This document shows positions 5,049 to 63,335 of a stretch of DNA of 64,000 nucleotides, piece after piece. The stretch is taken from contig JBKPAJ010000021.1 in the NCBI GenBank assembly GCA_046726375.1, forward strand, positions 65,199-129,198. Reading direction: 5' to 3'. The notes beneath the pieces are model-generated. The model was not told where the DNA came from. It was given only the letters and a program-made list of their open reading frames with translations, and ran no database searches. Source of the stretch: Acidobacteriota bacterium. GTDB taxonomy: Bacteria; Acidobacteriota; Vicinamibacteria; Vicinamibacterales; UBA2999. Positions within the stretch are counted from its first letter, which is position 1. Each line of letters opens with the position of its first letter. The position numbers and the translations under genes were made by a program.

Positions 5049-5645
5049 TTACTTCGCTCTCTTTACGTTCGTGAGCCGGATCAGCTCCGCCGCGTAGTCC
5101 TGTACAACAAACGCACCCTGCTTCACGGTGACTCTTGCCGCGGGGGCCATGGTCCCGGAGCCGCTGCCGGCGGCGTCGACTTCGATGTCGACGATCGCAA
5201 AGTCGTAGCCCTCCTTCGGCTTCGCGTCCTGGACGCCGGCGCCGAGGAACAGAATCGGCTGGTCGGCGACGATGGTCAGCAGCCGGCCTTTGTCGGTCGC
5301 CCGCTCGAGGGTCAGTCGTGTTGTCGTCGGTGTCCCCGTTCCCAACCGCACGGAACCAGTTGGAGGCACTCCGACCAGCGCCTTGCGCAGCGCCGCCGCT
5401 CCGCCGCTCGCGAACGCGCCGGTGAACTTGTCCACCTCGCTCTGCGACATCTTTCTGTCGACTACGATGGTGACCGGTGCGTTCGCCGCGGCCCCGCCGC
5501 CCGTCTTGACCGCGGCCGTCGCAGTGAAGGTCTCGCTGGTCTGCGCGTGCAGAGACGCAATCAGAAACGCTGACACCGTGGCGCCAAGCGCCGCGCCGAT
5601 TGCTGCCGATCGGAGATTCCGGGTTGTTGCCTGTCTAAGATTCAT
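5049..5645 (-). CDS. exported hypothetical protein
   Basis: 198-aa ORF with a signal peptide (…AAIGAALGATVSAFLIASLHAQT) and natural-looking composition. It lies 15 nt upstream of the EBP gene on the same strand. I recognise no family. Confidence 0.6.
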   Translation of the reverse strand: MNLRQATTRNLRSAAIGAALGATVSAFLIASLHAQTSETFTATAAVKTGGGAAANAPVTIVVDRKMSQSEVDKFTGAFASGGAAALRKALVGVPPTGSVRLGTGTPTTTRLTLERATDKGRLLTIVADQPILFLGAGVQDAKPKEGYDFAIVDIEVDAAGSGSGTMAPAARVTVKQGAFVVQDYAAELIRLTNVKRAK

Positions 5646-5947
5646 GGGTCACCTCTCGCGTCCTCTAACAACGCGCAGTGCCCCGAGTGCAGCAGACGTG
5701 CCGTGAATGGGGCGGGTGACGAAGCGGCGGAAGACGGCCGGAGACCGAACGAACTGCCTCCACGACAGGCGAATCCGCTCCGGTATCGCGGAGAAGGTCC
5801 GACATGCCGGAGATCGATTGGAGGACGGGGGCCAGGCCGCGGGTGGCCGTTCCTGCTGGGCGAATTGAACTTCGGGCTCTCGGCGAGTGCCGGACCGCTG
5901 CTCGCGGTCATGGCACGGGGCGTGCTGAACGGCACGTCGGAGCGAAC

Positions 5948-6793
5948 GTGTTCACCGTCTTCTGCCTTGGCCTCCTCGAACCAGTCGAACATGGTCTGTC
6001 GCAAAAGGCGGTGGAGATTGCGCGGCCCTTCGGATTCCCTATCACGAACTCGATGGTGGTGACTTGGGTCGTAGCCCTGGGCCTGATCCTCTTTGCGCAG
6101 CTGGCGACGCGGCGCATGAGCAGCGTCCCGAGCGGAGCGCAGAACTTCCTCGAATGGCTGGTCGAGGCCCTTTACGGACTGCTCGAGAGCATCATCGGCC
6201 GCCATCTGGTGCAGCGGACGTTCTGGTTCTTTGCCACGATCTTCATCTTCATCCTGTCCGCGAACTGGTTTGGTCTCATCCCGGGTGTCGGCACCATCGG
6301 GTGGGGTCACCAGACCGCCGAAGGCTTCGTCGTCGAGCAGCCGCTGCTCCGAGGCGCCAATGCGGATCTGAACCTGACCCTGGCAATGGCTCTGGTCTTC
6401 TTCGCCTGCTGGATCTTCTGGGCACTGCAGGAAGTGGGCATCGGCGGCGTGGCCACGGAGCTGTTCGCGCCGAAGGGCGAAACCACCGGCATGCTCAAAG
6501 TGCTGATGATTGTGGTGTTCTTCGCAGCCGGCTGTCTGGAGATTGTGTCGATTCTGTTTCGTCCCGTCTCTTTGAGTTTTCGTCTCTACGGCAATGTGTT
6601 CGCCGGCGAAAACATGCTGGAGGCGATGGCCACGCTCGTGCCCGGCCTCGGATGGTTGTTGCCGATCCCCTTTTACTTCATGGAACTGCTGGTGGGTCTC
6701 GTGCAGGCGATGGTGTTCATGCTCCTGACCGCCGTCTTCACGCTCCTGATTTGTCACCACGAGGAAGCTGGCCCCGCGGCGGCGCACGGCTGA
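5948..6793 (+). CDS. atpB: F0F1 ATP synthase subunit a
   Basis: The track ORF 5804..6793 contains FGFPITNSMVVTW, WFGLIPG and the conserved Arg motif LSFRLYGNVFAGE. The start is uncertain; I chose GTG 5948 because the 48 residues upstream of it are Arg/Gly-rich. A different frame upstream (5850-5940) looks coding-like and could be an AtpZ/AtpI-type remnant, which I could not resolve. Confidence 0.88.
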   Translation: MFTVFCLGLLEPVEHGLSQKAVEIARPFGFPITNSMVVTWVVALGLILFAQLATRRMSSVPSGAQNFLEWLVEALYGLLESIIGRHLVQRTFWFFATIFIFILSANWFGLIPGVGTIGWGHQTAEGFVVEQPLLRGANADLNLTLAMALVFFACWIFWALQEVGIGGVATELFAPKGETTGMLKVLMIVVFFAAGCLEIVSILFRPVSLSFRLYGNVFAGENMLEAMATLVPGLGWLLPIPFYFMELLVGLVQAMVFMLLTAVFTLLICHHEEAGPAAAHG

Positions 6794-6860
6794 CGGGGAT
6801 CGGATGGCGTGCGCGTAACGCATTCACATTGACTGGCGAGTAGCAGAAAGGACACACACG

Positions 6861-7049
6861 ATGATCGGAAGTATTCACGTCGGCCTGGCAGCACTGGGCG
6901 CCGCGATCGGCGTGGGATTGATTGGCAGCGGCGCCTCGAGCGCGGTGGGCAGGAATCCCGGCGCGTCCACGAAGATCATGGTCCAGTCGATCCTCTCGAT
7001 CGCTTTTGCCGAAGCGATCGTGTTCTACGCGCTGTTCCTCGTGCAGTAG
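6861..7049 (+). CDS. atpE: F0F1 ATP synthase subunit c
   Basis: 62-aa two-helix hairpin with a GxGxGxG-type first helix, loop RNPG, and the ion-binding carboxylate in IAFAEAIVFYAL. Confidence 0.92.
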   Translation: MIGSIHVGLAALGAAIGVGLIGSGASSAVGRNPGASTKIMVQSILSIAFAEAIVFYALFLVQ

Positions 7050-7111
7050 ACATCGCTTTCCGGCCGGCGGCATGGCGCCCAGCCGCGCCGGGAGAAAACG
7101 AGTGCGCAATC

Positions 7112-7657
7112 ATGGACGTAGTAGCGCTGCAGACTGCAGTCGAAGGCCAAAGCCAGATCGAACAGATCGCCAGCACCTTCGGCGTTGACTGGACTCATCT
7201 CTTCGCCCAGAGCGTCAGCTTCGGGATCGTATGCGCCGTTCTCTACGCGCTCGCATACAAGCCGATCCTGCGCATCCTCGAAGCCCGCCGGCAGCAGATC
7301 GCCGCCGGCCTGGCGAACGCGGAAAGGATCAGGGCGGAGCTCGACCGCATCGAGCAATCGCGCGTCGACGTCCTGGCAAAGGCGGCGGCCGAAGGCAAGC
7401 AGCTGATCGAGGACGCACGCGCCGCCGCGGCGCGTGTGCAGGCCGAGGAGACGAAAAAGGCCATCGCCGCAGCGGAGCAAATCATAGTGAAGGCGCGCGA
7501 GGCCGCAGCGCGCGATCATGCCCAGATGCTCGCCGAGCTCAGACGCGAGATCGGCCGCCTGGTCGTTCAGACCACCGCATCGGTGACTGGCAAGATTCTG
7601 ACACCGGAGGATCACCGCCGTCTGGCCGAGGAAACGGCCAGGCAGCTGGTGTCCTGA
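7112..7657 (+). CDS. atpF: F0F1 ATP synthase subunit b
   Basis: 181 aa: a single N-terminal TM helix followed by a long Ala/Glu/Arg-rich helical stalk. Its position between atpE and atpH fits. Confidence 0.85.
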   Translation: MDVVALQTAVEGQSQIEQIASTFGVDWTHLFAQSVSFGIVCAVLYALAYKPILRILEARRQQIAAGLANAERIRAELDRIEQSRVDVLAKAAAEGKQLIEDARAAAARVQAEETKKAIAAAEQIIVKAREAAARDHAQMLAELRREIGRLVVQTTASVTGKILTPEDHRRLAEETARQLVS

Positions 7658-7682
7658 TCGGCGCCGCCCGGGAAGGTCCGCG

Positions 7683-8075
7683 ATGAAGGCGAACCGGAAG
7701 GTCAAACGCTCAGCCAGGCACCTCTATCGGCTCTGTCTCGTCGATGGCGTGCTGGATGAAAGCCGCGTGCGCCGCGTCGCGCAGCGGATCGCCAACTCCA
7801 GACGGCGTGGCTCGCTCGCGATCCTGAGCGATCTGCGCCGACTCGTGCGACTCGATCGCGATCGCCACACCGCCCTCGTCGTGAGCGCCGCGCCGCTGGC
7901 GCCGAACCTGCGCGAACAGATTCAGTCGGATCTGAAACGCGTCTACGGTCCCACGATCGCAGCATCCTTCGAGGAAAACCCCGCCCTCATCGGCGGCCTG
8001 CGCATCCGAGTCGGCAGCGACGTCTACGACGGCAGCGTGCGGGCACGGCTCGCCGCCTTGCAGGCGCATTTGTGA
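7683..8075 (+). CDS. atpH: F0F1 ATP synthase subunit delta (short, 130 aa)
   Basis: OSCP-like C-terminal block (…VVSAAPL…LKRVYGP…FEENPALIGGLRIRVGSDVYDGSVRARLAAL). Its position between atpF and atpA fits. There is no room for a longer N-terminus because atpF ends at 7657. Confidence 0.8.
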   Translation: MKANRKVKRSARHLYRLCLVDGVLDESRVRRVAQRIANSRRRGSLAILSDLRRLVRLDRDRHTALVVSAAPLAPNLREQIQSDLKRVYGPTIAASFEENPALIGGLRIRVGSDVYDGSVRARLAALQAHL

Positions 8076-8096
8076 ACCTTTGTGGTGAGATGACCT

Positions 8097-9632
8097 ATGG
8101 CTGACCTCGTGCAAGAACTTGAAGAGCAAATCGCGGGAGCGAGAGCCGCAACCGCCAGGCAGAGTGTTGGCATGATCCGCGAGATCGGCGACGGGGTCGC
8201 CAGGATCGAAGGTCTCGACGATGTGATGTTGAACGAGATGCTCGACTTCGGCCAGGGCATCACCGGTTTGGCGCTCAACCTCGATGAGACCGAGGTTGCG
8301 GCCATCATTCTCGGCGACTACACCAAGCTGAGCGAGCGCGACGAGGTGCGTGCCACTGGTCGCCTGCTTCAGGTGCCGGTCGGCAGAGGCTTGCTCGGTC
8401 GTGTCGTGAGCACGCTCGGCGAACCGCTCGACGGCAAGGGGCCGATTCCGAGCGACGCGGCCTATCCGGTCGAAAAGCTCGCGCCAGGCATCATCAAGCG
8501 CCGTCCGATTGGCCAACCGGTCCAGACCGGGATCATGCCGATCGACGCGATGATTCCCATCGGCCGCGGGCAGCGCGAGCTGATCATCGGCGACCGCTCG
8601 ACGGGTAAGACGGCAATCTGCCTCGACACGATCATCAGCCAGGCGCGTCTCAACAAGGCGGCCGAAGGCGCGGGCGACAGCAGTTATCGGCCTCTCTACT
8701 GCATCTACGTCGCGGTCGGCCAGAAGCAGTCGACGATCGCCCGGATCATCGCCACGCTCGAAGACGCCGGCGCCATGCCGTACAGCATCATCGTCGCGTC
8801 GCCAGCGTCGGATTCGGCCGCCAGTCAGTACCTCGCGCCTTTTGCCGGAGCCGCCATGGGTGAGTGGTTCATGGACCACGGCATGGACGCACTCATCGTC
8901 TACGACGATCTATCCAAGCACGCTGTTGCCTATCGTCAGGTGTCGCTGGTGCTGAAGCGACCGTCCGGTCGCGAAGCCTACCCAGGTGACGTGTTCTATC
9001 TCCACAGCCGGCTGCTCGAACGCGCCGCTCGAGTGGGCGAACAATTCGGCAACGGTTCATTGACGGCGCTGCCGATCATCGAGACGCAGGCCGGCGACGT
9101 TTCGGCGTACATCCCGACCAACGTCATCTCGATCACCGACGGACAGATCTTCCTGGAAACCGATCTGTTCCATCAGGGCATCCGTCCGGCGATCTCGGTC
9201 GGCATCTCGGTGTCGCGCGTGGGCTCCGCGGCGCAGCTCAAGGCGATGAAACAGGTGGCCGGACAGCTCAAGGGCGACCTCGCCCAGTTCCGCGAACTGG
9301 CGGCCTTCGCGCAGTTCGGCTCCGAGCTCGATGCCGCGACACAAGCCAAGATCGATCGCGGCAAACGCATCGTGGAGCTGTTCAAGCAGCCGCAGTACAG
9401 GCCGATTCCCGTGGAGCATCAGGTGGCGGTGATCTGGGCCGTCCAGAACGGCTATGTGGACGATGTGCCGGTCGAGCGGATCAAGGAATTCCAGGCGGAC
9501 TGGACGGACTTTCTGACCACGCGGCGGGACGCGGTGCTGCGCAAAATCACCACCGAAAAGGCGATTAGCCCCGAACTCGCCGCGGAGCTGAAGGCGGCGG
9601 CCGATCAGTTCAAGCAGACGTGGAGGAAATAG
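8097..9632 (+). CDS. atpA: F0F1 ATP synthase subunit alpha
   Basis: 511 aa with Walker A GDRSTGKT, plus [42 protein letters not shown]. Confidence 0.98.
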
Positions 9633-36454: not shown

Positions 36455-37408
36455 ATGCGCGCGGCCGCCATTGATCGGTTCGGAGGACCGGAGGTCTTGA
36501 CGCTGCACGTCATGCCGGTACCTGAAGTCGGGCCCTCGGAAGTCCTGATCGCGATTCACACGGCGGGCGTTGGCAGTTGGGACGCAGACATGCGCGAGGG
36601 ATGGTGGCCCGACAGCAAGCGCCCCAGGCCTCCGCTGGTGCCGGGCACTGACGGCTCAGGGACAATCGCCGGAGTAGGCTCGCGGGTTCGTCGATTCGCT
36701 CGCGGCGACACGGTGTATTCGTATAGCTTTGCCAACCCGAAGGGCGGCTTCTACGCGGAGTACGTGGCTGTCGTCGCCGAGAAGGTCGGACGACCTCCCG
36801 CGATGCTCAGCCTGAAAGAGGCGGGTGCGGTCGCCACCACGGGTCTGACCGCGATCCAGGGAATAGACGACGTGCTTCATGTGAAGCGCGGCGAGGCTGT
36901 CGTGATTCACGGCGCCTCGGGCGGCGTCGGCAGTCTCGCGCTGCAGTTTGCGAAGATGCGCGGCGCGCGGGTCCTGGCGACCGCGTCCGGGCAAGAGGGC
37001 ATCGCGCTCGTGCGCCGTCTCGGCGCGGACGCAGCCGCCGACGCACGGCGTGATGACCTCAAGGCCGCGGCACTCGAGTTCGCGCCCGACGGCGTCGACG
37101 CGGTCCTGGCGCTTGCCGGAGGCAAGGCGCTCACACGGCTGCTCGACGCCGTTCGACGCGGTGGCCGCGTCGCGTTCCCAAAAGGCGTGGAACCCGCTCC
37201 TCGCAAGCGACGGGACTTGTCCGTCCAGTCGTACGACGCGACGCCGGGCGCCCGCGAGTTCGAACGCTTGGGGCGAGCGATTGAAGCCGCGCAGCTCGAG
37301 GTAGCGATTGCCGCGGCGTACCCGCTCGAGCGGGCCGCGAGCGCACACCAACGGCTCGAGAAGGGTCACGTGCACGGCAAGATCGTGTTGCGCGTCCGGG
37401 GCCGTTAA
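36455..37408 (+). CDS. zinc-type alcohol dehydrogenase / NADPH:quinone oxidoreductase (MDR family)
   Basis: MRAAAIDRFGGPEVL…, the GAGGVG-type Rossmann motif IHGASGGVGSLALQFAK, and HVHGKIVL at the end. The track start 36392 (1 nt after the ALDH-relic stop) would add a basic 21-aa extension. The start is ambiguous. Confidence 0.88.
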   Translation: MRAAAIDRFGGPEVLTLHVMPVPEVGPSEVLIAIHTAGVGSWDADMREGWWPDSKRPRPPLVPGTDGSGTIAGVGSRVRRFARGDTVYSYSFANPKGGFYAEYVAVVAEKVGRPPAMLSLKEAGAVATTGLTAIQGIDDVLHVKRGEAVVIHGASGGVGSLALQFAKMRGARVLATASGQEGIALVRRLGADAAADARRDDLKAAALEFAPDGVDAVLALAGGKALTRLLDAVRRGGRVAFPKGVEPAPRKRRDLSVQSYDATPGAREFERLGRAIEAAQLEVAIAAAYPLERAASAHQRLEKGHVHGKIVLRVRGR

Positions 37409-37746
37409 CTGTATTGGCGGCCCCGAGGGCGTCTCTCTGCGCGCACGGTCTTCGAAGGATTCGCCGAAGTACTGGGAGTTTGGTCCGTCGCGGTAATTGT
37501 CGGAATGATGCAACGACCACGGCAGCGAACCAAGTGCCCTCGCAGGCCGATGCTCAAGACCGTGGCGCATGAGATCGCGCATCTGCTGAACCATCATCGC
37601 AAAGCATCGACGCCGGCGCACGAGTACTACCAGACGTCCCGCTATCTGGTGGACGTGTTGAACACGCTGGACGGATCTGACATCAAAATCCCCATCAGCG
37701 CGTGCTCGACTGGAACCCCTGGTAGCGGGAGGCCGAATCTCGACCT

Positions 37747-38469
37747 TCACCGCGCCAAGTGCTTTGTCAGCCACGATGCCTGGTACTCACGCAACAGCGC
37801 GATCGCTTCGTCAGCATTCGCCACACAGCGTGGGATGGCCATGTCGTCGGCGTTTGCCAACGGGGGGTCTTCAGCGAGCATTGAGCGACGCGCCCATTCG
37901 ATCAGGCCGGGCCACATCTTCCCCACGAGAATCAGCGGTGCGTCCGGGAGATGTTTCACCTGGAGCAGTTGCCAGATGATCATCGTTTCCAGGACCGTGC
38001 CGACACCTCCCGGCGCCACCAGGAAGGCGTCGGAGGCGAGCACGAACTGGTGCAGGCGCGTAAAGAACGTCCGATGCTCGAAGACCTCCGTCACAAACGC
38101 GTTGACTTCCTGTTCAAACGGCAAATCGACCCGAATCCCGATCGACTCACCTCGTTTCGCTGTGGCCGCTCCTTCGTTGGCCGCCCTCATCAGACCTGGT
38201 CCCCCGCCGGTGATGATGTCGCAGTTCATCTCTGCCAGCGCGGCGGCAACCCGCTTCGTCTCTTCATAGCCGAACGATCCCGGCTGCACCCGCGCCGAGC
38301 CGAAGATGGTCACGCGATAGCGATCGCGGCGAGAGGGTTTGAGGCGGGTCAGATTGTTGACGACGTCCCAGAGTCCCAGGATCGAATCCACGAGAATCTG
38401 CCTCACATGCTCTTCATCCGCGAGGCTGACGGCTGCGGGCGATGTGTCACCAGACGTATGGTCGCTCAT
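37747..38469 (-). CDS. LOG-family (TIGR00730) nucleotide phosphoribohydrolase
   Basis: 240 aa with IFGSARV…, GGGPGLMRAANEGA and PGGVGTVLE motifs. Confidence 0.9.
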   Translation of the reverse strand: MSDHTSGDTSPAAVSLADEEHVRQILVDSILGLWDVVNNLTRLKPSRRDRYRVTIFGSARVQPGSFGYEETKRVAAALAEMNCDIITGGGPGLMRAANEGAATAKRGESIGIRVDLPFEQEVNAFVTEVFEHRTFFTRLHQFVLASDAFLVAPGGVGTVLETMIIWQLLQVKHLPDAPLILVGKMWPGLIEWARRSMLAEDPPLANADDMAIPRCVANADEAIALLREYQASWLTKHLAR

Positions 38470-43129: not shown

Positions 43130-43691
43130 CGCAAGCATCGGCTTACCTCACACTGCATCAGCGTGCACATAACGACACCCACGACACCATTTGCCGGCGA
43201 ACTGCTGTGAAGAATGCGGCGCACAGCCCAGCTAAGATCATTGACGCCTCGCGGCCGCACCTCTCGATGATCGACGCAGCTGCTAATCGTTCGGAGCTCT
43301 GAATTATTGAGGTCGTAATCGCCGGCTGCATGGCGGTCGCACGCCTTCGCAAGGTTCTCACCCGGCGAAAAGCGCGCTACTGCGCCACCGCCACCGAACT
43401 CGGTCCAGACCGAGTGGCCGAGAAATGATTCGCCCTAGTCGTGTTAACGGGCACACGCGCGTCAGGAATGCAAAGCGCGACGCCGCAAAGAAAATTTGCA
43501 AATAGCTCTTGACATGTTTCGCGCGTGCCACCGCCAAAGATCACCGCTGGTATGTAGATCGGCCGTCGTGGCGACGACGATGGCGCGGGAGTGATTTTCT
43601 TGCTGCGGCCACGTCAAACGCTTTCTACAACCACGAACGCACGCCTGCGCGGCGCTCGGGGTTGCAAAATCTGCCGTGCTATAGCGGGAGT

Positions 43692-44693
43692 ATGACGACC
43701 ATCGCTCCCTCCTTCGTCGATGTATGCGATCGCGATATCGTGGTCCACGTCAAGGACGCCGCCGCGCACGAGCGCGGCGCCACGGGAAGGCTGATCGCGC
43801 TGCTGGCGGAGTTCGATGCACGACGACTGCATCTCGCCGAAGGATGTTCTTCCCTGTTCATCTATTGCACGCAAGTGCTACACCTGTCAGAACACGCCGC
43901 GTACGGCCGGATCGAAGCCGCGCGCGCCGCACGCCGTCTGCCGGTCGTCCTGGAGCGGCTTGCCGACGGATCGGTGAACCTCACCACGGTGTGTTTGCTG
44001 GCGCCGCATCTGACGCCACAGAACGCGGCGGAAGTGTTGGACAGAGCGCGGCACAAGAGCAAGCGCTACGTTGAACATCTCGTCGCGGAGTTGCGCCCGC
44101 TTCCCGATGTGGCCGCGGCCGTGCGCAAGTTGCCGGAGGCCAAAGCAGTCGCGCCCTCATCCGCGACCGACCCGGTGAGCCCGGCCGGTGCGCGCGCGCC
44201 CACTCCGACTGTCGCGCCAACGCCTCCAAGTCATCGGCCCGTCGTCGCGCCGCTCGCGCCAGAGCGCTACAAGATTCAAATGACCGTGGACCGGGAGACT
44301 TACGAACGGCTACGGCGCGCCCAGGACTTGCTCCGTCATGTGATTCCGACGGGCGGTCCCGCCGCCATCGTCGGGCGCGCACTCACACTCCTGGTCGAAC
44401 GTCTCGAGCGGACCAGGTGTGCGACGACCGATCGACCTCACGGGGCGAGTCCACCTGTCTCCTCGTCGCGGACCATTCCTGCCGCGGTCAGACGGCGCGT
44501 GCTGCAGCGTGACGGCAATCGTTGCGCCTTTGTCGGCACAGAAGGCCGATGCACCGACACGGGATTTCTCGAGTTCCATCACGTGCTACCGTTCGCGGAC
44601 GGCGGCGCGGGGACGGTCGACAATATCGAGCTGCGCTGCCGCAGTCATGACGCACACGAGGCGGAGCGGTGGTTTGGGTTGGCTGGACCGTGA
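43692..44693 (+). CDS. HNH endonuclease with DUF222-like N-terminal domain
   Basis: ATG 43692 gives 333 aa. The N-terminal part is …RLIALLAEFDARRLHLAEGCSSLFIYCTQVLHLSEHAAYGRIEAARAARRLP…. The C-terminal HNH motif is RCAFVG…CTDTGFLEFHHVLPFADGGAGTVDNIELRCRSHD. Confidence 0.85.
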   Translation: MTTIAPSFVDVCDRDIVVHVKDAAAHERGATGRLIALLAEFDARRLHLAEGCSSLFIYCTQVLHLSEHAAYGRIEAARAARRLPVVLERLADGSVNLTTVCLLAPHLTPQNAAEVLDRARHKSKRYVEHLVAELRPLPDVAAAVRKLPEAKAVAPSSATDPVSPAGARAPTPTVAPTPPSHRPVVAPLAPERYKIQMTVDRETYERLRRAQDLLRHVIPTGGPAAIVGRALTLLVERLERTRCATTDRPHGASPPVSSSRTIPAAVRRRVLQRDGNRCAFVGTEGRCTDTGFLEFHHVLPFADGGAGTVDNIELRCRSHDAHEAERWFGLAGP

Positions 44694-59462: not shown

Positions 59463-61733
59463 TCACAACTGAACGTCAACCGGCTTTCCATCAAACACAA
59501 GCTGGCGAGACGTCTTCTCTCCCGCCAGGCGCACCTCGATCGCCCGTTTCTGCGGCGGCAGAAATCGAGAGCCCGGCGCCAGGCGGAGCGTGTAACGCCG
59601 ACTCGCGTCGCTCCACGTCATCGCGAGCCGCATCCACTCGCCCTTGCGATAGTCGAACGTCTTTCCATCGTCTTCGTACAGATCGAAAGCGCCGTCGGCA
59701 CCTGGGTAAATCGTAACGGTCAGCGGACCATCCACGGGCTCGTCCACATACTGCTTGACGGGTCCAAAGGGCAGAATCGCCCCCGCGCGCACGTGCAAGG
59801 GCATGGTTGCGAGATCGACGCGCCGATCGATCTCGCGGCCGCCATCCACTCGCTGCTCGGTCCAGAAATCAAACCACGCGCCGCGCGGCAGGTAGAGGCG
59901 CCGGCTCGTTGCACCCTTCTCCACGACGGGCGACACGAGGATGTCGCGTCCCCACAAGAATTGATCGCCGCGTGCGGCTGCGTGCGAGTCGTCAGGATAA
60001 TGCAGCCACAACGCGCGCATCAGCGGCAGGCCGGTCTGGGTGCACTCCCGCGCCGCTGTGTAGGTGTAGGCCAGCATTCGATACCGCAGTTCGAGGTACT
60101 TCTTCACGATTGGCTCGACGTAAGGATTGTTCAACTCTCGTGGATCGGGATCGGCCGCGCCGCCCGTGTAGCTGCGAATTTCCGACGGTCCGAGCTTGCC
60201 CGTGTTCCATCCCCACGGCAGCCGCAAGTGCCAGTTGCGGCCGTGCGAGCGGAACAAGGGACAGAAGGTGCCAAACTGAAACCACCGCACGTGCAGCTCG
60301 CCCGTGTACTCGGCTGTCGGCACGAAGCCGCCGATATCAGTGCCCCAGAACGGAATGCCTGAGAGTGCGGTGTTGACCGCAACGGGCACGTGCGTCTTCA
60401 ACGTCTCCCACGTCGTGTAGACGTCACCCGACCAGAGAAACGCGCCGTAGCGTTGCATTCCGGCGTAGCCGTTGCGGTGAAGCGCAAACGGCCGTTCGTT
60501 CGGCCGATACCGCTGCGGGCCCTCCCAATACATGCGAATGCGCGCGAGTCGTGATGCGGCGTCCAAGCCGTCGCCTTGATCGGGCCACATGCCGTCGACA
60601 CCGAGATCGTAAAGCGGCTTGTGATACGGCCAGTAGCAGGGCACGGCGCGATCATCGGGCCAGCGATCGTCCGCCGTACGGCCGCTCGGCACCGCCTTGT
60701 CGGGCGTGCATGGTTCGTTCACGGCGCCGCTCATTCGCCGACCTTCGATGACGACGTGCAAGACGACTTTGTAATGCTGCGCGTGGAGCTCGTCGATCGT
60801 GCGCTTGGGGACCGGGAAGTTCTCCGTCTTCCACGCGAATTCACCGTTGCGTGTGTTCCAGCCCGAGGGAGTGAATTCGGTTCCGAGATAGATCAGCGCA
60901 TCGCATGGCAGCTTTTTTTCCCGGAACGTGTGAGCCACCCACATCACTTCCTCAGGACCTGCGAGCGTGCGATGTGATTGCATGTAGCCGAAAGCCCACA
61001 ATGGAGGCAGTTCCGCGAACCCAGTGATGCGCGCGTATTCGCCCATGATGGTCTTCGGTTCGTGCGATGCGACGACAAAGACATCAAGGGGAAGCGCGGC
61101 ATCGCTCGGCGTGAGCGTTCCTTGCGGACCCGTCAGATCGAACGCGCCGAGCGGCTGATGAACATACATGCCCCAACCATCGGTGCTGACCAGCCACTGG
61201 ATCGGGACGCGCCCTCCATGTGTGCGCAGCTGGTAGCCGCCTTGGCCATTGCGGTTCGTGTATGTCGATCCCTTCCGATCGAACTGCGGACCCCCTTCGC
61301 CGAAGCCGAAGAGCGGCCCTTTGCCGAGCGTGAACGTCATCTTCGGCGCTGCAGCATCCAGCACTAGGCGTTGGATCGCTTCGCCCTTCACGGTATCGAC
61401 GTGCAGTGTTGGCGGGCCGTCGGTGAACCGCACGATCAAGTTTCCTGCCTGGACCGGTGCAAAGGCAGAGCGCTGACGCCCAATCGCACGCCCCTCTGCC
61501 GCCGCAACTAACGCGCCATCGTCAGACGGGGTCTGCCCGCTCCCCCCGTCAATTGGCACCACGATGATCCGCACGGTGTCGCGGCTCACGGACGCGATCG
61601 CGATCTCGACGCGCTTTCCGGCGAAGATGATCGGCGAAGCCTGGCCGCGAAGGATCGTTGGTGCGAGGACGACGCCCGCACCCGCCGTTGCGAGCTGTTT
61701 CAGCGCGATCCGACGCCGGATCGGTGTGGACAT
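59463..61733 (-). CDS. glycoside hydrolase family 31 (alpha-glucosidase/xylosidase-like) with Tat-type signal
   Basis: 756 aa with N-terminus MSTPIRRRIALKQLATAGAGVVLAP, GVDGMWPDQGDG and FLWSGDVYTTWETL, which are GH31-like catalytic-region motifs. Confidence 0.9.
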   Translation of the reverse strand: MSTPIRRRIALKQLATAGAGVVLAPTILRGQASPIIFAGKRVEIAIASVSRDTVRIIVVPIDGGSGQTPSDDGALVAAAEGRAIGRQRSAFAPVQAGNLIVRFTDGPPTLHVDTVKGEAIQRLVLDAAAPKMTFTLGKGPLFGFGEGGPQFDRKGSTYTNRNGQGGYQLRTHGGRVPIQWLVSTDGWGMYVHQPLGAFDLTGPQGTLTPSDAALPLDVFVVASHEPKTIMGEYARITGFAELPPLWAFGYMQSHRTLAGPEEVMWVAHTFREKKLPCDALIYLGTEFTPSGWNTRNGEFAWKTENFPVPKRTIDELHAQHYKVVLHVVIEGRRMSGAVNEPCTPDKAVPSGRTADDRWPDDRAVPCYWPYHKPLYDLGVDGMWPDQGDGLDAASRLARIRMYWEGPQRYRPNERPFALHRNGYAGMQRYGAFLWSGDVYTTWETLKTHVPVAVNTALSGIPFWGTDIGGFVPTAEYTGELHVRWFQFGTFCPLFRSHGRNWHLRLPWGWNTGKLGPSEIRSYTGGAADPDPRELNNPYVEPIVKKYLELRYRMLAYTYTAARECTQTGLPLMRALWLHYPDDSHAAARGDQFLWGRDILVSPVVEKGATSRRLYLPRGAWFDFWTEQRVDGGREIDRRVDLATMPLHVRAGAILPFGPVKQYVDEPVDGPLTVTIYPGADGAFDLYEDDGKTFDYRKGEWMRLAMTWSDASRRYTLRLAPGSRFLPPQKRAIEVRLAGEKTSRQLVFDGKPVDVQL

Positions 61734-61793
61734 GCGCGCATCCTAGCGTTCGCTCCAACCGCATTACAATGCCCCACACGAAAGGAGATCCCG

Positions 61794-62150
61794 ATGGCGA
61801 AGAAAGGTTCTGAACGCGGCCGGGCTGCAAAAAAGGCGAAGCCGTCGCGAGCGCGCACTTCGGTGAAAAAGAGCGCTGGAGTGAAAAAGACCGCTGGAAA
61901 GGTGACCACGCCTTCCGCCGTCGCGGAGCAGGCGAGCCGCATCGTCAAGGAGGCTGCCGCCAAGCAGCGCATCGTCGTTTCGCTGACCGAGGAGCAGTTC
62001 GAAGAGCTGGCCCGAAACCTCAGGCCTGAGGGCAATGGCACATTCGATCCGCGGAAGCCGTTCCAGATCGAGTTCGAAGCCGGCACACGGGTGAAGTCGC
62101 GGTTGCCGGTCGCGAGCTGCGCGTTCTGGAGCGACAGCTGCTGCGTCTGA
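61794..62150 (+). CDS. 118-aa Lys-rich protein with Cys-rich C-terminal tail (candidate precursor peptide)
   Basis: AAGGAG lies 6 nt upstream of the ATG. The N-terminus is basic and includes an 18-nt tandem duplication (61863-80/61881-98, VKKSAG/VKKTAG). The centre reads VSLTEEQFEELARNL. The end reads …RLPVASCAFWSDSCCV*. The stop lies 6 nt before the next ATG. Confidence 0.6.
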   Translation: MAKKGSERGRAAKKAKPSRARTSVKKSAGVKKTAGKVTTPSAVAEQASRIVKEAAAKQRIVVSLTEEQFEELARNLRPEGNGTFDPRKPFQIEFEAGTRVKSRLPVASCAFWSDSCCV

Positions 62151-62156
62151 ACCTTC

Positions 62157-63278
62157 ATGTCTCCCCGGCCGGGTCGTGTTCGCCGCGCGAGCTGTCTCGT
62201 CGCATTCTGGGAACACGACGCGCTCGTCGTTGTCAATTACCTCACCGGCCGAGAGACGGTTCTGCCGACGCCTTTGGCCACGGTCTTGAGTCGTCTCGAT
62301 GGCTATATTGCCTTTGACGCGCTCACTCGCCAACTCGCCGCGCTTCCGCGCGCGAGGTCGCTGCTCCGGAGACTGATCACTCAGGATCTGCTCCTCACCG
62401 AGAATTCGCCGATCGACGTTCGTGACCGGCTGTTAGCTGCCGCGTGGGAATGGGGACCGAGCGCGCGCTTTTTTCACTTCGCGACGCAACGCGTTCCTTA
62501 CGAGTCGGATCCCGTTGAGGGACGTGGGCGTCTCGCAGAGCATGCCCGGCGAGTGCCGCCGCCCTCTCCTTACAAGGAATTCAACGCCGCCATTCCTCTG
62601 CCGGGCAGCTTCGCGGAGCAGGACGGTGACTTCTGGGACGTGCTGCGGCGGCGCAGGACATTGCGTCGATTTCAGCGAGCGCCAATCAGCCACGAAATGC
62701 TCGGGCAAGTGCTGCTCTGGACGTGGGGCGAAACACGGCGCATCGACAATCCCGACGTCGGATCGTACTTGCTGAAGACGTCGCCCTCGGGCGGGGCGCG
62801 CCATCCAATCGAAGTGTACCCGTTCGTCCGCAGAGTAACTGGCGTCAAACCCGGCATCTATCACTATTCAGTGAAGGAGCATGCGCTCGAGTATCTGCGT
62901 CCGCCGCTCTCAGCGAGTCAGCTTGTGAAGCTGCTTGCGAATCAACCGTGGGTCCGTGACGCCGCCGTCGTATTCTTCATGACCGCGGTTGTCGAGCGGA
63001 GCATGTGGAAGTACAAACACGAACACGCGTATCGCGTGTTGCTGCTCGATGCCGGTCACCTCGGTCAAACGTTTCATCTCGTCTGCACGAAACTTGGACT
63101 CGCCCCGTTCACGTCGTCGGCCAAGCAAGACGACGAGATCGAGCGTGTGCTTGGCATCGACGGCGTCAAGGAGATCTCCCTGTACGCCGCCGCTACCGGC
63201 ATTCCAGCTTTCAGCGATCAGCTCTCAGCACAAAAAAGCCGAAAGCCCAAAGCGCGAAAGCCGAAAGACGAAAGCTGA
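62157..63278 (+). CDS. SagB/ThcOx-family (nitroreductase-fold) dehydrogenase with RRE-like N-terminal domain
   Basis: 373 aa. The C-terminal part reads …FWDVLRRRRTLRRF…KTSPSGGARHPIEVYPF…GIYHY…WKYKHEHAYRVLLLDAGHLGQTFHLVCTKLGLAPF…. The N-terminal ~110 aa (LVAFWEHDALVVVNYLTGRETVLPTPLATVLSRLDGYIAFDALTRQL…LITQDLLL) resembles a PqqD-like winged helix. Confidence 0.86.
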   Translation: MSPRPGRVRRASCLVAFWEHDALVVVNYLTGRETVLPTPLATVLSRLDGYIAFDALTRQLAALPRARSLLRRLITQDLLLTENSPIDVRDRLLAAAWEWGPSARFFHFATQRVPYESDPVEGRGRLAEHARRVPPPSPYKEFNAAIPLPGSFAEQDGDFWDVLRRRRTLRRFQRAPISHEMLGQVLLWTWGETRRIDNPDVGSYLLKTSPSGGARHPIEVYPFVRRVTGVKPGIYHYSVKEHALEYLRPPLSASQLVKLLANQPWVRDAAVVFFMTAVVERSMWKYKHEHAYRVLLLDAGHLGQTFHLVCTKLGLAPFTSSAKQDDEIERVLGIDGVKEISLYAAATGIPAFSDQLSAQKSRKPKARKPKDES

Positions 63279-63335
63279 TAGCCGAAAGCTGATAGCTGAT
63301 AGCTGATAGCTGACAGCCGAGAGCTGAAAGCGCGT
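63237..63335. repeat. heptanucleotide tandem repeat array (AGCYGAN, ~13-14 units)
   Basis: Units, in order: AGCCGAA, AGCCCAA, AGCGCGAA (8 nt), AGCCGAA, AGACGAA, AGCTGAT, AGCCGAA, AGCTGAT x3, AGCTGAC, AGCCGAG, AGCTGAA, AGCGCGT. The SagB-like stop TGA (63276-78) lies inside a unit. Confidence 0.92.

Follow-up and report, generated by a model that had tools for sequence, protein, structure and literature searches.

What does a SagB-type flavoenzyme do when its gene follows that of a small Cys-tailed protein and no YcaO cyclodehydratase is encoded beside the pair? This question is raised by two adjacent genes on the forward strand (61794..63278) of a 64,000-nucleotide stretch of an Acidobacteriota bacterium contig (JBKPAJ010000021.1), the whole of which is called the window here. 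SagB-type flavoenzymes have so far been treated as the second azole-forming step, after YcaO, and YcaO-independent reactions of this type have been reported or proposed only in 2025 preprints, for the tiarin fluorophore and for dehydrophenylalanine. The original prediction for this locus was a stand-alone leader-docking SagB-type enzyme together with a Cys-tailed protein, and this reading is supported by the analysis reported here. We lean toward the two genes being a self-contained enzyme-substrate pair for YcaO-independent dehydrogenation, and the cassette is probably the producer of an undescribed modified peptide or protein. With its single enzyme and single substrate, it would be simpler than any such system known so far.

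The second gene (62157..63278) encodes a protein of 373 residues which, by sequence comparison, is a SagB-family dehydrogenase with predicted binding of flavin mononucleotide (FMN). The sole Pfam domain detected in it is PF00881 (residues 163-342, E 8e-19, 68.8 bits against a cutoff of 23.5), and the NCBIfam model TIGR03605 is passed with 123.9 bits (cutoff 78.4). Both motifs on which the SagB/ThcOx nitroreductase-fold identity had been proposed, SPSGGARHPIEVY and YRVLLLDAGHLGQTF, are also present in the open reading frame (ORF). The best specific NCBIfam model is TIGR04511, with a score of 181.4 bits that lies under its cutoff of 240, and five relatives of the enzyme score 159-171 bits, all under the same cutoff. 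The mean predicted local distance difference test score (pLDDT) of an AlphaFold2 model made from 30 sequences is 85.8. In Foldseek, ThcOx and BmdC align with this model over 362-371 of the 373 enzyme columns (E 5e-19 to 2e-15), the probability for nitroreductase folds being 1.0 and McbC also being matched. Pfam, NCBIfam and Foldseek together place the nitroreductase-fold oxidase domain at residues 158-350 (62628..63206). Within it, R166-R167-T168-L169-R170 (62652..62666) forms an RR[ST]xR motif of the FMN phosphate/N1-binding type, a motif-level match to the flavin-binding pattern Arg145/Arg146/Ser147/Arg149 of BmdC (PMC8795117), and R166, R167, T168 and R170 are invariant in an alignment of 30 homologs (alignment A2). 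The dyad K285-Y286 (63009..63014) is invariant in the same alignment and corresponds, residue by residue, to the catalytic Lys201-Tyr202 of McbC and to the WKY of ThcOx. In McbC, this Lys-Tyr pair removes the proton at C-alpha, and the hydride from C-beta goes to the flavin (PMC6395948).

The first gene (61794..62150 including the stop codon) encodes 118 residues and is called a small precursor-like gene here on the basis of the ORF call, its homologs and purifying selection. Its AAGGAG Shine-Dalgarno site (61782..61787) lies 6 nt 5' of the ATG by inspection of the sequence. The TGA (62148-62150) is followed by the 6 nt ACCTTC and then by the enzyme ATG at 62157, before which no GGAG-like site can be read. 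The ORF with its strong ribosome-binding site and the short distance to an enzyme gene lacking its own are thus as originally described. A comparison with the closest relative used for selection (L002, an Acidobacteriota metagenome-assembled genome, MAG) reveals seven synonymous and no non-synonymous differences in the last 36 codons of the small gene, and a dN/dS of 0.09 for the enzyme gene. Judged from these codon changes, both ORFs are real genes under purifying selection. In the window, the two genes share a reading frame across TGA-ACC-TTC, and the same is true of L002, although not of other loci. A read-through or selenocysteine fusion of the two ORFs was rejected because other loci use different frames or a 4-nt overlap.

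That both products act together is supported by the linkage of their genes. A scan with the enzyme profile, taking one genome per species, gave 59 loci, 20 of which were informative (enzyme at least 44% identical to that of the window and upstream DNA available). In 19 of these 20, a member of the small-protein family ends directly upstream of the enzyme gene, L016 being the exception. The reverse search, starting from the small protein and performed by contig look-ups, found the enzyme gene directly downstream in all eight places (a metagenome scan with the small-protein profile gave 2 loci), so the co-occurrence check set for the original prediction comes out positive in both directions. The spacing ranges from a 4-nt overlap to 82 nt. 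Moreover, all-against-all clustering of the ORFs within +/-6 kb at 19 loci shows that only the small-protein and the enzyme families are common to them, with one SagB-like gene per cassette at every locus. These 19 loci represent about 10 phyla, and the carriers, many of them soil bacteria and some of them archaea, belong to Acidobacteriota, Armatimonadota, Nitrospira, Gemmatimonadota, Chloroflexota, Alphaproteobacteria, Thermoanaerobaculia, Actinomycetota and Thaumarchaeota. The core is near-identical residue by residue over this range, Thaumarchaeota included, with no accompanying export or cleavage genes. Among the cultured Actinomycetota, Nonomuraea typhae, Microbacterium deminutum and Nostocoides sp. 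F2B08 carry the cassette, and a two-gene system in cultured strains gives access to what SagB-type enzymes do alone.

In two of the eight places reached from the small protein, both on long-read metagenome contigs (L062:5323-6364 and L067:3266-4283), the downstream enzyme gene is broken by frameshifts, which reflect either assembly error or pseudogenization. Also, the Nonomuraea typhae records (L014 and L061) hold two cassette copies in different chromosomal places, one of them adjoining RND-type transporter genes; L061 is from assembly GCA_044457445.1 and L014 possibly from the same one.

The small protein belongs to a large and unannotated family. A first homolog search returned 11 close homologs, and the loci gathered via the enzyme then exposed a far wider group: a profile search gave at least 145 clusters of homologs, every one labeled hypothetical, and a filter-free search over 1.84 billion representatives gave 49 homologs. 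The family holds at least 165 sequences with a median length of 88 residues (74-150). Profile searches with the small protein gave no Pfam, NCBIfam or PDB match, nor any NHLP or Nif11 match. DUF7291, which appeared in 3 of 17 members at a sub-threshold E of at least 0.019, was rejected.

Conservation in this family peaks at the C-terminus. The terminus Cys-Cys-x is found in 154 of the 165 members, a few members having a short extension beyond the pair, and the last 13 residues follow the motif V-A-[GAS]-[YC]-x-[YF]-x-[GS]-D-[TS]-C-C-[VA]. In the window, this core-like tail is VASCAFWSDSCCV (62109..62147). Counts per position over the 154 sequences give V in 147 at the start of the tail, A at -12 in all, an aromatic residue at -8 in all (Y 143, F 11), C at -3 and at -2 in all, and V (99) or A (51) as the last residue. 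Position -10 is Y in 133 and C in 19, and Arg prevails at position -7. The constant elements are V-A, the aromatic residue at -8 and [TS]-C-C, the latter being the sole conserved Cys/Ser/Thr triplet of the tail; no conserved Gln is found in the last 13 positions of the 154 tails. The last 10 residues of the window protein, CAFWSDSCCV, hold three Cys (C109, C116 and C117) and not the four that had been counted in the original prediction. Its proposal of a conserved Cys tail is sustained for the terminal pair, whereas the first Cys (position -10) and the Trp belong to a minority subtype.

Upstream of the tail, about 55-60 residues are also conserved, with the elements ASxxxKxxAxxQ, IxIxLTxEQ (strand-like) and DPxxPxxIxF, and alignment conservation delimits the corresponding leader-like region of the window protein to residues 45-105 (61926..62108). 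The stretch VSLTEEQFEELARNL was likewise found within the 118 residues. The usual pattern in peptides synthesized ribosomally and modified post-translationally (RiPPs) is a conserved leader and a variable core; in the present family, the tail is the best-conserved part and the N-terminus varies in length. A gammaproteobacterial variant (L019, 4383-4631) keeps the leader-like ELTSEQLESLK and ends in KKVFCFFN without a Cys-Cys tail, its enzyme being more distant (39% identity to that of the window). From its sequence, this variant suggests a substrate-like architecture of leader plus core for the small protein.

The N-terminal extension of the window protein (residues 1-44, 61794..61925) is Lys/Ala-rich and lineage-specific, being variable or absent in most family members according to alignments and length counts. 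It contains an 18-nt tandem duplication (61863..61898; 17/18 identical, encoding VKKSAG/VKKTAG) detected by Tandem Repeats Finder and missing in the closest homologs (gap in P0002, alignment A1). The Lys-rich N-terminus and its internal duplication are therefore present as had been noted; nevertheless, a histone-like function was rejected and the extension is placed outside the conserved system because most members lack it.

The predicted structure of the enzyme suggests how the two proteins could meet. Ahead of the oxidase domain, the AlphaFold2 model shows an N-terminal domain (residues 7-82, 62175..62402) of four strands, three helices and one strand, with the strands within 7-36, the helices within 38-75 and pLDDT above 90. 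It is followed by a helical linker and loop (residues 83-157, 62403..62627) comparable to the wrapping linker of BmdC and McbC. In ThcOx, two 'peptide-clamp' domains precede the oxidase domain (PMC5108345), and BmdC consists of a domain resembling a RiPP recognition element (RRE), followed by a wrapping loop and then the oxidase domain (PMC8795117). The model supports a beta3-alpha3 RRE shape for the N-terminal domain of the window enzyme, like that of ThcOx and BmdC.

Based on these features, the small protein would be the substrate, consisting of a long leader-like part and a 13-residue core-like tail, and the enzyme would be a dimeric FMN-dependent SagB-type dehydrogenase. The RRE-like domain would dock on the leader (residues 45-105), probably through the IxIxLT strand paired with the edge of the beta-sheet, and docking would deliver the tail to the flavin. 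There, Lys285-Tyr286 would take the C-alpha proton and the flavin would accept the C-beta hydride. Each such event would be a C-alpha/C-beta dehydrogenation (-2 Da), and cyclodehydration by a YcaO would not have to come first. By analogy, the likeliest targets would be the invariant aromatic residue at -8 (Tyr/Phe), the Tyr/Cys at -10, or both, which are favored because PflD/PosD, probably the closest characterized relative, modifies a Phe. A ring could then form if the Cys-Cys pair attacks the dehydro residue or itself becomes oxidized. We infer the substrate role of the small protein, the modified residue and the product alike, and any specific product is much less certain than the reading as an enzyme-substrate pair for YcaO-independent dehydrogenation. 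Possibly, the product would represent a previously undescribed way of modifying Tyr/Phe and Cys after translation.

The comparison with PflD/PosD gives this mechanism its nearest precedent. These proteins are MNIO-nitroreductase fusions from Pseudomonas RiPP clusters (bioRxiv 10.1101/2025.10.30.685615, PMC12636437), in which the nitroreductase half converts Phe to Z-dehydrophenylalanine (-2 Da) with no YcaO; YcaO-independent nitroreductases in RiPP clusters are described by the same authors as rare and uncharacterized (PMC12636437). The window enzyme shares with them the motifs KTSxSGGxxHxIEVYP, HYSVRRHxLExL and WKY. Over two intact blocks of 106 residues, its identity to PosD is 46-47%, an approximate value taken from an error-laden PosD sequence, whereas ThcOx and 3eo7 show 34-38% in the same blocks. 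Also, the profile of the enzyme family matches the PosD nitroreductase half over positions 120-339, in pieces. Among the characterized proteins compared, the nitroreductase domain of PflD/PosD thus appears to be the closest relative at the sequence level. Moreover, the modified Phe sits in V-A-I-F-D or A-A-I-F-D (PMC12636437), and the V/A-A-x that precedes it resembles the V-A-x-[YC]-x-[YF] of the tail.

Several points weigh against the enzyme-substrate reading. The first is that the RRE is supported at the level of predicted structure and not of sequence, because a profile of 24 N-terminal domains gave nothing significant against PDB sequences and none of the 24 members had a PqqD-type Pfam match at E <= 10. 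The RRE-type N-terminus of the original prediction is in consequence sustained by the AlphaFold2 fold and the ThcOx/BmdC alignment, and not by a sequence-level match. A stand-alone, single-sequence model of residues 1-101 was poor (pLDDT 48), and a fold search with it put RREs of the lasso and sactipeptide kinds (TbiB1, CteB and another lasso B1 protein) on top at a non-significant E of at least 0.15. Second, the PosD identities are approximate because the sequence was taken from machine-read supplementary DNA, whose reading errors cause frameshifts, and the analogy with PflD/PosD is partial because of the MNIO fusion and of a substrate of another kind, an NHLP-type precursor with a Gln-rich ARMD core. 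The Pseudomonas systems also comprise an alpha-ketoglutarate-dependent HEXXH enzyme, a GNAT and transporters, whereas the cassette combines one enzyme, which bears an RRE-like domain, with a precursor of an unrelated, Cys-Cys-tailed family and includes no further genes. Third, with about 60 conserved residues in 74-150, the small protein could be a folded partner and not a leader plus core. Fourth, neighbor clustering found no conserved protease or exporter near the cassette, which is unusual for a secreted RiPP. Finally, [TS]-C-C would also suit cyclization by a YcaO.

This last point leads to the alternative that survives best, although we consider it unlikely: an azole pathway with a YcaO acting in trans, where [TS]-C-C would be converted to azolines that the enzyme oxidizes to (methyl)oxazoles and thiazoles, the route known from linear azole-containing peptides. 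In its favor, the complete apparatus of an azoline dehydrogenase is present in the enzyme, with the SagB domain and the Lys-Tyr dyad aligned to McbC, T/S-C-C is a typical cyclizable run, and the search for a YcaO covered the window ORFs and the cassette neighborhoods rather than whole genomes. Within this scope, a Pfam scan of 32 window ORFs matched no YcaO domain (an ATP-synthase-like block at 7.7-12.4 kb and short ORFs lay outside the scan), in agreement with the earlier statement that none is nearby. No linked cyclodehydratase was found in any of about 27 loci either, and no third conserved family turned up within +/-6 kb at 19 loci or in 7 further annotated places. SagB enzymes normally have their YcaO partners encoded in the same cluster, whereas the two genes considered here are tightly linked to each other over about 10 phyla with no third shared family. 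PflD/PosD, moreover, needs no YcaO.

A further argument against azoles comes from more distant enzymes. A clade with 37-44% identity to the window enzyme, found in Acidoferrales and Vicinamibacteria (loci L022-L048, e.g. L022:5643-5906, 6001-7056 and 7070-9505), is linked to a convergent Ser/Thr kinase-tetratricopeptide repeat gene; the small ORF upstream of its enzyme genes lacks Cys and carries AA[HFW]Gxx[FLY] as a motif. These small ORFs have no Cys, Ser or Thr run. Because the distant clade pairs with a Cys-free small ORF, the wider enzyme group cannot depend on azolines. This clade may represent a second uncharacterized modification system, its kinase gene occurring with the distant enzymes and not with the Cys-Cys cassette.

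Slightly less probable again is that the small protein serves as a redox or metal partner and not as a permanently altered substrate, its Cys-Cys cycling between thiol and disulfide or binding a metal, with the flavoprotein as its reductase or oxidase. The pair is invariant (154/154), the small protein is cytoplasmic, with no signal peptide and no nearby protease or exporter, the conservation of the core across phyla would suit a housekeeping role, and electron shuttling is common in nitroreductase-fold enzymes. Nonetheless, the enzyme retains the proton-abstracting Lys-Tyr dyad specific to C-alpha/C-beta dehydrogenases and, according to its model, a domain of the peptide-docking type, and its relatives pair with Cys-free small ORFs. 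Moreover, the invariant V-A and aromatic residue, at least seven residues away from the Cys pair, would be left unexplained.

A hetero-oligomeric oxidase of small molecules with the small protein as a structural subunit, as AlbB for AlbA in the cyclodipeptide oxidase AlbAB (a nitroreductase-fold enzyme reportedly requiring a small second subunit of ~100 residues from the same operon), is very improbable, because even though this precedent exists and AlbAB (8uc3) is among the Foldseek matches, the match is weak and generic (rank 47), no cyclodipeptide synthase, nonribosomal peptide synthetase (NRPS) or other substrate-making gene is conserved nearby, and a conservation that peaks at the extreme C-terminus with an N-terminus of free length fits a substrate better.

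With the enzyme-substrate pair as the preferred reading, the cassette can be set against the systems already described. Its enzyme shares the predicted fold, the predicted use of FMN and the Lys-Tyr catalytic residues with the azoline dehydrogenases McbC, SagB, ThcOx and BmdC, and with BmdC and ThcOx also the predicted order of RRE-like domain, linker and oxidase domain. However, the overall identity to these enzymes is about 23%, and they act on azolines made by a YcaO or by NRPS Cy domains encoded alongside. TIGR04511 ('SagB_rel_DH_2'), the best specific model for the window enzyme, describes a putative peptide maturation dehydrogenase system that was defined by bioinformatics and has no YcaO; its TIGR04510-type partner is absent from the Cys-Cys cassette.

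The tiarins (the trifolitoxin family) are similar in having an RRE-bearing SagB-like dehydrogenase and a precursor gene directly upstream with a strong Shine-Dalgarno site. In these, an RRE-bearing TfxB/TfxC pair acts on a conserved Gln of precursors of 23-65 residues, often near GNAT and aminoacyl-tRNA synthetase immunity genes (bioRxiv 10.64898/2025.12.02.691738). A tiarin identity of the cassette was rejected because it has a single enzyme instead of the TfxB/TfxC pair, and no conserved Gln. GNAT and synthetase neighbors are also missing, save for a single locus of a Limnocylindrales MAG (L012:7133-9577) in which the cassette is followed directly downstream by a valine-tRNA ligase gene; it recalls the tiarin immunity synthetases, and it is taken as a coincidence because it occurs at a single cassette locus. 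Trifolitoxin had been put forward as the precedent for a SagB-like enzyme acting with no YcaO, and this applies to the class-defining tiarin step, which has no need of one; yet the trifolitoxin cluster does contain a YcaO, TfxE (bioRxiv 10.64898/2025.12.02.691738), and PflD/PosD is the better precedent.

Literature searches found no described class that matches the cassette, in line with the earlier statement that it could be assigned to none. A leader-guided SagB-type flavoenzyme working on a ribosomal precursor is already known, and since 2025 so is its YcaO-independent use. What is new here is the minimal two-gene form, the undescribed family of Cys-Cys-tailed precursors and the breadth of distribution.

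The same features also allow a bolder version of the enzyme-substrate reading, which we regard as possible but doubtful: the cassette would serve protein maturation and not antibiotic production, and its single flavoenzyme would install a dehydro-aromatic residue, followed by a Cys crosslink or heterocycle, on an uncleaved and unexported cytoplasmic protein of ~80 residues, with no YcaO, radical-SAM or metal enzyme taking part. A retained modified protein or a peptide-derived cofactor is a live possibility because the core is conserved across phyla, the precursor is long and no protease or exporter is linked. If true, the system would yield a new redox cofactor derived from a peptide, or else a modified protein, and would be conserved from Actinomycetota and Acidobacteriota to ammonia-oxidizing archaea.

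Regarding the remainder of the locus, the GH31 gene (59463..61733, reverse strand) and the 5'-3' exonuclease gene (from 63353, forward strand) that had been named as neighbors were both recovered with Pfam. In the 60-nt gap toward the divergent GH31 gene, TACAAT (61765-61770), located 24 nt 5' of the small-gene ATG, could be a candidate -10 element, although the consensus scan did not call it. At the other end of the cassette, a repeat scan detected a 7-nt tandem array (AAAGCCG x13.7; 63235..63331, forward strand) that spans the last ~15 codons of the enzyme and extends into the intergenic region with repeated TGATAG stops. The array encodes a Lys-rich C-terminal tail that is missing in the homologs, and pLDDT is low past residue 351. 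In a Nocardioides MAG, a 109-residue ORF lies just upstream of the cassette (L017:3958-4287 and L018:2421-2750), and its C-terminus has a weak likeness to dynobactin precursors (NF041295, E 5e-4, below cutoff). Elsewhere in the window, unrelated genes for an L,D-transpeptidase, TonB-type outer-membrane proteins, transporters and sigma-54 activators are found, together with two ORFs without any Pfam family (5642-6823 and 36656-37774) and a 394-residue ORF (43509-44693) with a marginal match to HNH endonucleases at its C-terminus.

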